Assembly: GCA_964525635.1 (NCBI GenBank)
Contig: CAZGJX010000010.1
Location: forward strand, 1-60,995
Origin: an uncultured archaeon
GTDB lineage: Archaea > Asgardarchaeota > Lokiarchaeia > Sigyniarchaeales > SOKP01
Length of the DNA: 60,995 bases
Reading direction: 5' to 3'
Shown: one piece after another, positions 23,466 through 24,183 of the stretch
How positions within the stretch are numbered: the first letter of the stretch is position 1
Layout of the letters: the number at the start of each line of letters is the position of its first letter
Notes under the pieces: model-generated
Told to the model about the DNA's origin: nothing
Databases searched by the model: none
Seen by the model: the letters and a program-made list of their open reading frames with translations, nothing else
Position numbers and translations under genes: made by a program

Positions 23466-24183
23466 ATACCATCACGTAGAGGAGATGGTACTCTTGTCTT
23501 TAAAATTTGCTTCTATGGGCCAAATAGATTTCATCTCGAACTCTAGGTTTAGCTTAGGAGGCAAAACAACAGCTCTGGAATGGGTATACCATAAAGAAGG
23601 CTTAGCCAGTGGGGATATGCAGCAAAGGTCTACGAGATTTCCTCGACTTGAATAATTTAATAGACTGCTTATACAAGATCCTACTGGGAGGACTTAAGGA
23701 TTGAGGCGCCCGCGATCCTGTCCAATATTCTTCGACAGAGTTGTAGCAAGAGTATCAAATGTAGTTTTTCAAGTTTATACAGTAGCAGGTCAAAGGAGAC
23801 ATAAATTTCAACGACAAACTGTTTTAAAAGGTACTGATGCAGTCATTTTTACATTTGATTCATTAATAGACCAATGGGAAGAAAATATATGGTCTTTAAA
23901 GGAACTTTTAAGATTTTATGGAAGTAAATTAATCCCTCCCTCACCAGGAGAACCTCCAGAAGTACCTATGGTAGTTTTGGCAAATAAAAGGGATTTAGAA
24001 GGAATTGTTGATATTTCAAAGATAAGACAAGTATTGGATACGGCTAAATTAACCGATACGCTAGTATATGAAACCATTGCCATAACAGGAGTAAATGTTA
24101 AAAGAGGTTTTGTATATGCAGCACGCCAAGCCGTTTTAAATCATTACAAGAAATTGTCTGGTAAAGCGATTGAAAAAACATAA
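23466..24183 (+). CDS. MglA-like small GTPase, spliced: join(23466..23523,23552..23626,23672..23695,23726..24183), 204 aa
   Basis: The join is 615 nt and in frame: G1 GPSLGGKTT, G2 DPTGRTLFFD, G3 YTVAGQ, G4 NKRD, G5 ETIA. GAGGTG SD at 23452-23457; the ATA start aligns with the ATG of the 20888 copy. Confidence 0.85.
23524..23551 (+). other. BHB-type intron 1 (28 nt) in the P-loop
   Basis: Central helix GGCC(23518-21)/GGUU(23546-49) with two G-U pairs; bulges AA|A and UA|G; intron stem UAGA/UCUA; excision gives CCA A|GC TTA = P-S-L, as in the intron-less copy. Confidence 0.82.
23578..23600 (+). repeat. 23-bp direct repeat (att-like core), copy 2
   Basis: Identical to 20972-20994. Confidence 0.8.
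23627..23671 (+). other. BHB-type intron 2 (45 nt, contains in-frame TAA)
   Basis: Central helix AGCA(23621-24)/UGCU(23666-69); bulges AA|G and UA|U; intron stem GUCUA/UAGAC plus a CGAG/CUCG hairpin; excision gives Q-I-Q-D-P. Confidence 0.8.
23696..23725 (+). other. BHB-type intron 3 (30 nt, 60% GC) in switch I/G2
   Basis: Central helix GGAC(23690-93)/GUCC(23720-23); bulges UU|A and AA|U; 7-bp intron stem AGGAUUG/CGAUCCU; excision gives ACT T|TA TTC = RTLFFD. Confidence 0.85.

Follow-up and report, generated by a model that had tools for sequence, protein, structure and literature searches.

How can the gene of a small GTPase be expressed if its reading frame is broken three times? In a 60,995-nt stretch of Lokiarchaeal DNA (the window, meaning the whole stretch that was analysed), such a gene carries three short inserts on the forward strand, and the first-pass annotation had proposed that these are bulge-helix-bulge (BHB) introns of its mRNA. 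To avoid circularity, we located the inserts by aligning protein to DNA with a program that is blind to RNA structure and sets no limit on gap length. When the intact orthologue from a same-genus genome (G001) served as reference, inserts of 28, 45 and 30 nt were found at codons 20, 45 and 53, and all 12 residues on either side of each insert were identical to the reference. This motif-free alignment bears out the coordinates and lengths first proposed and the 615-nt joined frame, and alignment to intact orthologues confirms that the three inserts are real at the DNA level. The gene is divided as follows:

23466-23523, + strand: exon 1, 58 nt, with the ATA start; encodes the N-terminus and the first half of the P-loop, ending in codon 20 (phase 1)
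23524-23551, + strand: putative intron 1, 28 nt, causing a frameshift; BHB helix GGCC/GGUU
23552-23626, + strand: exon 2, 75 nt, with the remaining P-loop (SLGGKTT)
23627-23671, + strand: putative intron 2, 45 nt, with an in-frame TAA; BHB helix AGCA/UGCU
23672-23695, + strand: exon 3, a 24-nt micro-exon, with switch I as far as Arg-Thr of GRTLFFD
23696-23725, + strand: putative intron 3, 30 nt, creating a TAA; BHB helix GGAC/GUCC
23726-24183, + strand: exon 4, 458 nt, carrying TVAGQ (G3) and NKRD (G4)

Removal of the inserts yields a stop-free frame of 615 nt, encoding a GTPase of 204 aa. If any single intron is kept, the GTPase ends at 26-53 aa; all three must go for the 204 aa to be reached. 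The joined frame comprises the P-loop GxxxxGKT, the switch I arginine (RTLFFD), TVxGQ and NKRD, all of them aligned to MglA. Its best matches among solved structures are MglA of Myxococcus and Thermus (PDB 5ymx and 3t12; E 7e-22), which are collinear with it, and its Pfam matches are Arf and Ras. That is, the predicted product is an MglA-like small GTPase. As the first-pass annotation had expected, gene callers report a truncated protein, 160 aa long, which begins within intron 3 and misses the P-loop. A search for homologues of exon 4 retrieved no longer protein of 100% identity, as would correspond to the spliced form; the cluster consisted of the truncated call, found twice, and the intact protein of another species.

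Translation is predicted to begin at the ATA codon, which the first-pass annotation had not pointed out. A start upstream of it is excluded by an in-frame TAA two codons upstream, and the following motif was found:

23452-23457, + strand: Shine-Dalgarno-like GAGGTG, 8 nt ahead of the ATA start

GAGG(T/A)-like motifs precede most orthologues. Across 149 distinct orthologues, each required to have a complete 5' end, the start codons were TTG (72), ATG (54), ATT (10), GTG (7), CTG (2) and ATA (2). Since non-ATG starts outnumber ATG in this family, the ATA start does not count as a lesion, and a fourth intron that would supply an ATG was ruled out on the same grounds. The mostly non-ATG starts may limit translation. 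A promoter scan with a sigma-70 model, which does not suit archaea, stayed at chance level. Further along the window, a 2-hydroxyacid dehydrogenase gene (24321-25259) lies between the GTPase and metallophosphoesterase genes; it is absent from this place in G002 and L347-L350 and represents a second lineage-specific insertion. An actin-family gene (13853-15019, Pfam E 8e-43) and, behind it, the gene of an 858-aa protein that weakly matches CHAT are syntenic in G002.

The GTPase gene was present in 51 of the 61 genomes searched and in 26 of the 27 good ones. The present genome holds no second intact copy, the nearest paralogues being about 30-33% identical. Compared with three same-genus orthologues, exons 1-3 showed 27-33 synonymous and 0 non-synonymous codon differences; for exon 2 alone these numbers were 11-17 and 0, and for exon 3 alone 5 and 0. 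Relaxed selection on exon 4, with an intact orthologue elsewhere doing the job, had been named by the first-pass annotation as an observation that would speak against splicing. It was not found: exon 4 differs from the same three orthologues by 53-73 synonymous against 6-10 non-synonymous changes, and the gene is single-copy. The pattern indicates that purifying selection acts on all exons of the GTPase gene. A young pseudogene, in which the inserts would be recent lesions and their hairpins by-products of insertion, is one reading to be weighed against these counts, and we consider it very unlikely. In its favour, the locus is rearranged (see the stump below), an ATA start is unusual and the same-genus relatives have the GTPase without inserts. 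Yet the start loses its weight in a family of which the majority begins at non-ATG codons, and the geometry, the recurrence and the company of the inserts, given in the following, all argue against it.

Three registers restore the protein for intron 1, two for intron 2 and one for intron 3. In all three introns the central helix scores 4/4 at one of these registers, with exon nucleotides -6 to -3 opposite intron nucleotides -6 to -3; that of intron 1 includes two G-U pairs. On the intron side, the stems of introns 1, 2 and 3 comprise 4, 5 and 7 contiguous bp. On the exon side, the outer helix of intron 1 has 4/5 pairs with one mismatch, and those of introns 2 and 3 have 3/5 pairs with the first pair open, which is the relaxed form known from most cbf5 introns. 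At random positions in the same gene, with equal length and equal register freedom, the chance of such geometry is 0.023, 0.012 and 0.007 for the three introns, jointly about 2e-6. Here the first-pass annotation holds in each particular: the cut after the second nucleotide of each 3-nt bulge coincides with the protein-restoring boundary, the three 4-bp helices are complete, and the exon-side stem is partly relaxed in introns 2 and 3. Had the gene decayed, three independent lesions would all have fallen into the BHB register, with no other damage to the gene.

When the region was folded without constraints, the helix and bulge of introns 2 and 3 were contained in the fold. Since both helices form together there, the 24-nt exon between them is no hindrance to either. 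The BHB fold of intron 1 lies 4.4 kcal/mol above the minimum-energy fold, and a more stable alternative fold exists nearby. Folding z-scores are weak throughout (-0.65 to -1.9 per intron, -2.5 for the whole region). A group I or group II ribozyme core (>100 nt) is absent from these hairpins of 28-45 nt. They also lack the footprint of a MITE or insertion sequence, as exact-equivalent shifts amount to 0-1 nt only, there is no target-site duplication and the genome contains no further copy.

Orthologue comparison for insert presence and stem covariation, which the first-pass annotation had suggested, supported sites 1 and 2 and left site 3 on its own. Of the 149 orthologues, 131 are free of inserts; 12 contain a single insert, 5 contain two, and the present gene alone contains three. 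The inserts of these 18 genes measure 28-45 nt and occupy about ten sites from codon 13 to codon 103; because orthologues were sampled in order of their similarity to exon 4, inserts in the 3' half are under-counted. Site 1 (codon 20) also has inserts in L024/L323, L269 and L309. Together with the present gene, four different insert sequences occur at this site; the hairpin sequences differ and the helix is kept, with GGCC or GACC on the exon side against GGUU. Site 2 (codon 45) is common to L109, which has a 29-nt insert with the same inner hairpin. At site 3 no other of the 149 orthologues has an insert, and because this site occurs in one organism only, it offers no covariation for intron 3. 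Two sites common to diverged lineages with intact exons are hard to reconcile with a pseudogene. With their patchy distribution, the introns look like elements that the host tolerates and not like a feature fixed long ago. A switch of Ser20 between TCN and AGY codons was considered as a scar of intron loss and ruled out, as other serines switch equally often.

The genome was then searched for BHB-like inserts in other broken genes, a further proposal of the first-pass annotation, and eight further genes were found. At 816 gene places, with sampled contigs of relatives as references, this census yielded 11 frame-breaking short inserts in 9 genes, 3 of them in the GTPase gene. The others are:

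C71:17580-17619 (L351): RNA polymerase A', 40 nt, frameshift, BHB-like
C71:20882-20911 (L351): RNA polymerase A'', 30 nt, stop, BHB-like
C151:5048-5079: EF-2-family gene without the HRG motif, probably the paralogue; BHB-like frame-breaking insert
C44:13663-13693: RadA; BHB-like frame-breaking insert
C102:12459-12429: DnaG; BHB-like frame-breaking insert
C22:16745-16776: phosphofructokinase; BHB-like frame-breaking insert
C1:63101-63071: MoxR-like ATPase; BHB-like frame-breaking insert
C60:17071-17038: 142-aa protein; BHB-like frame-breaking insert

The six inserts outside the polymerase genes are 31-34 nt long. Two of the genes we take to be A'' and MoxR-like from recognised motifs. Across the 11 inserts of this genome, the helix scored 4/4 in eight and 3/4 in three. 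By this census, such inserts are present in about 1% of the genome's conserved genes that were tested, and the class is not special to the GTPase gene. RNA polymerase subunits A' and A'' are indispensable, and both genes are single-copy in this genome; for these two reasons their inserts are the strongest indirect argument for removal, and such genes cannot be pseudogenes.

Similar inserts were found in G025, a genome of another genus:

G025 C9:608331-608302, 269072-269043, 720731-720702 and 775892-775863, and C6:441941-441913: BHB-like inserts, with gyrB among the genes

In total, 23 frame-breaking inserts of 28-45 nt were found by protein homology alone. The 4/4 helix was present in 18 of them (1.4 expected) and helix plus intron stem in 17 (0.24 expected), with the reservation that not all 23 are independent, some being related. 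Two stop-free in-frame insertions were without BHB geometry. The lengths of the 23 inserts peak sharply at 30 nt, and the bulge bases before the cut are mostly AA (14/23 on the exon side, 13/23 on the intron side). Three inserts are alike across genes and genomes (C151:5048-5079, G025 C9:775892-775863 and the L007 site at nt 70; shuffle z 6.7-7.8), and the first two are both preceded by CATGGAA. This likeness is partly forced by exon pairing and hints at movement between genes. Comparison of the putative mRNA introns with the tRNA introns of this genome gave no convincing sequence match, and an origin from the latter was rejected. The tRNA genes elsewhere in the genome are intron-laden; an array of about 20 mostly intron-free ones, including a tRNA-Ile with UAU anticodon (C54:19098-26273), is possibly a mobile element or contaminant.

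Splicing of the three-intron GTPase mRNA by EndA and RtcB, the enzymes of tRNA splicing, is the best reading of the locus and, in our judgement, very probably the right one. It is favoured because the geometry is far above chance in a single-copy gene with selection on its exons, because inserts recur at the same sites elsewhere and sit in essential genes, and because both enzymes are encoded. The genome has two EndA paralogues (C18, C105) besides RtcB (C119); in the catalytic EndA subunit Tyr, His and Lys are conserved, and the structures it resembles most are those of Aeropyrum EndA, whose extra KPR loop it shares. EndA of the Aeropyrum type has been associated with the splicing of cbf5 and with relaxed motifs (PMC2738675). 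In the proposed mechanism, the last exon bases would pair with the 3' end of the intron, forming a helix of 4 bp that has a 3-nt bulge at either end and is closed by the intron hairpin. At each bulge the two-subunit EndA would cut behind the second base, and RtcB would then ligate the exons, in the manner known from tRNA introns and from cbf5 mRNA of Crenarchaeota. Three such rounds of cutting and joining, two of them flanking the 24-nt exon, would give the 204-aa protein from the ATA codon. The cutting of the RNA, EndA and RtcB as its agents and initiation at ATA are what we infer from these features of the DNA.

Removal by an enzyme other than EndA and RtcB, or partial removal with splicing as a regulated switch, is most unlikely. 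The relaxed exon-side stems and the more stable alternative fold around intron 1 might be read in this way, but cut sites and helix length fit the EndA rule exactly, an EndA of broad specificity is encoded, and the patchy, site-variable occurrence of the inserts (131/149 orthologues without any) argues against conserved regulation. Even less probable is that the RNA stays uncut and the ribosome skips the inserts by translational bypassing or frameshifting. Known bypass elements are hairpins with stop codons, and so are the present inserts. However, matching take-off and landing codons were found at none of the three, and bypassing has no need of exon-insert pairing in the BHB register. Moreover, the sole protein-restoring register of intron 3 falls within a codon, and only this junction restores Leu53, which is invariant in 149/149 orthologues.

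With EndA/RtcB splicing as the preferred reading, the rearrangement upstream of the gene can be considered. Its parts are:

20888-21004, + strand: intron-free stump of the GTPase gene, 39 codons, ATG start
21197-23278, - strand: ORF of 693 aa that separates the stump from the intron-bearing 5' end; belongs to a multi-copy family of Lokiarchaea and is likely cargo
23290-23408, + strand: second-type upstream region, 75% like that of another species (L347-L350) and not found before the gene in G001 or G002

The stump encodes GTPase residues 1-39 unchanged. The first-pass annotation had taken it as independent confirmation of junction 1, which is correct at the protein level; base for base the two copies disagree, the stump reading CCA TCA TTA and the spliced gene CCA AGC TTA, and the stump stops after 39 codons. 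Altogether 15 codons differ, all synonymously (23/114 bases). Since stump and intron copy have diverged only synonymously, both were under selection, from which it follows that they evolved apart, in different lineages, and met recently. The stump starts 130 bp past a methyltransferase gene, a place at which several relatives have the intact gene (125-141 bp). If the upstream DNA is included, 83% of its nucleotides agree with the beginning of the gene in the same-genus G001 and G002, and among 148 orthologues its best match is G002 (87%). Identity to G002 is just 72% for exon 1 and 88% for the first part of exon 4. The stump is probably the displaced native 5' end. It appears likely that DNA from a related species, comprising the 693-aa ORF and a foreign 5' end, replaced the native 5' end and left the stump behind. 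Intron 1 would have been imported along with the foreign 5' end; introns 2 and 3 may be imported or native, as both lie past the end of the stump. Recombination point and donor could not be placed, the identities being too saturated.

An origin of the stump from reverse-transcribed spliced mRNA was ruled out by the 23/114 synonymously differing bases and by its own upstream DNA. None of the other GTPase loci fetched has a stump. The N-terminal domain of the 693-aa ORF occurs at >20 places in the genome, and the ORF gave neither a Pfam match nor a usable atlas match. A 65-codon open stretch on the - strand (20991-21196) abuts the stump end and has no match in the genome or the fetched loci.

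The least probable alternative, with a chance close to nil, is an assembly artefact: the source is a metagenome-assembled genome (245 contigs, ~3% contamination), and because the stump-cargo junction at 21005 is known from one assembly, with no second one across it among the assemblies searched, a chimeric join there is possible, but this could explain the position of the stump at most. A Logan contig of run SRR9707989 is 100% identical across 21919-28626, the three inserts included, and the N-terminus derived from intron 3 recurs in a JGI protein call. As both carry insert sequence, the inserts are not the error of one assembler, and same-site inserts occur in unrelated samples.

Taken together, we think it quite likely that Lokiarchaeia routinely splice ordinary mRNAs with their tRNA machinery: in about 1% of conserved genes, RNA polymerase subunits included, with up to three events around micro-exons, with introns that are gained and lost from lineage to lineage and that can pass from one species to another when the 5' half of a gene is replaced. 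If these mRNAs are spliced, mRNA splicing would be a routine step of expression in close prokaryotic relatives of eukaryotes, on which RNA polymerase subunits depend. Many genes of Asgard archaea that annotation lists as pseudogenes or as truncated would then be intact, as illustrated by the GTPase called as 160 aa without its P-loop. The genes would also offer direct material for studying the origin and spread of such introns, and the way in which a cell that has no nucleus delays translation until splicing is done. The suggestion of the first-pass annotation that the locus bears on the origin of eukaryotic split genes is speculation that our results do not support; the locus provides no evidence on how spliceosomal introns arose, since tRNA splicing, to which the present chemistry belongs, works differently from the spliceosome.

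How does the locus compare with known systems? MglA of Myxococcus and Thermus likewise has the Arg of RTLFFD in place and TVxGQ instead of DxxGQ. Unlike in MglA systems, no gene of the partner MglB (Roadblock) lies among the ORFs that neighbour the present gene. MglA-like GTPases have been reported in Lokiarchaeon MK-D1 (PMC10933270).

In Asgard tRNA genes, non-canonical and multiple introns have been described (bioRxiv 10.64898/2026.10.13.758758). They resemble the present inserts in their BHB boundaries, repeated gains and number of several per gene, and most Asgard genomes have a two-subunit EndA; that study concerns tRNA genes only, in contrast to the GTPase mRNA. An mRNA substrate is known from Haloferax volcanii, where HVO_1309 has a BHB intron in its 5' UTR (PMC7714728) and cutting by EndA was shown in vitro and as circular RNA. 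Its position is non-coding, however, with no frame to restore. Our literature search, which covered a minority of subscription journals, found no paper on Asgard mRNA introns, and within the same scope cbf5 is the one archaeal gene for which an intron in the coding sequence has been confirmed (PMC2738675, PMC7714728).

By analogy, the GTPase inserts would work like this cbf5 intron; the host gene is an MglA-like GTPase, not cbf5. Watanabe in 2002 and Yoshinari in 2006 reportedly dealt with the BHB intron of the cbf5 pre-mRNA. It occurs in Desulfurococcales and Sulfolobales (Yokobori 2009, PMC2738675). Both cases involve a short intron in coding sequence at a catalytic motif, cut after the second bulge base, often from a relaxed BHB, with a hetero-oligomeric EndA and a patchy distribution among relatives. 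For cbf5 there is one intron at one site of one gene, at the codon of the catalytic Asp, and its splicing has been shown. The present inserts, known from DNA only, differ in their host, an Asgard archaeon, and in their extent: three introns per mRNA, a 24-nt exon between two of them, about ten sites across orthologues and at least nine genes.
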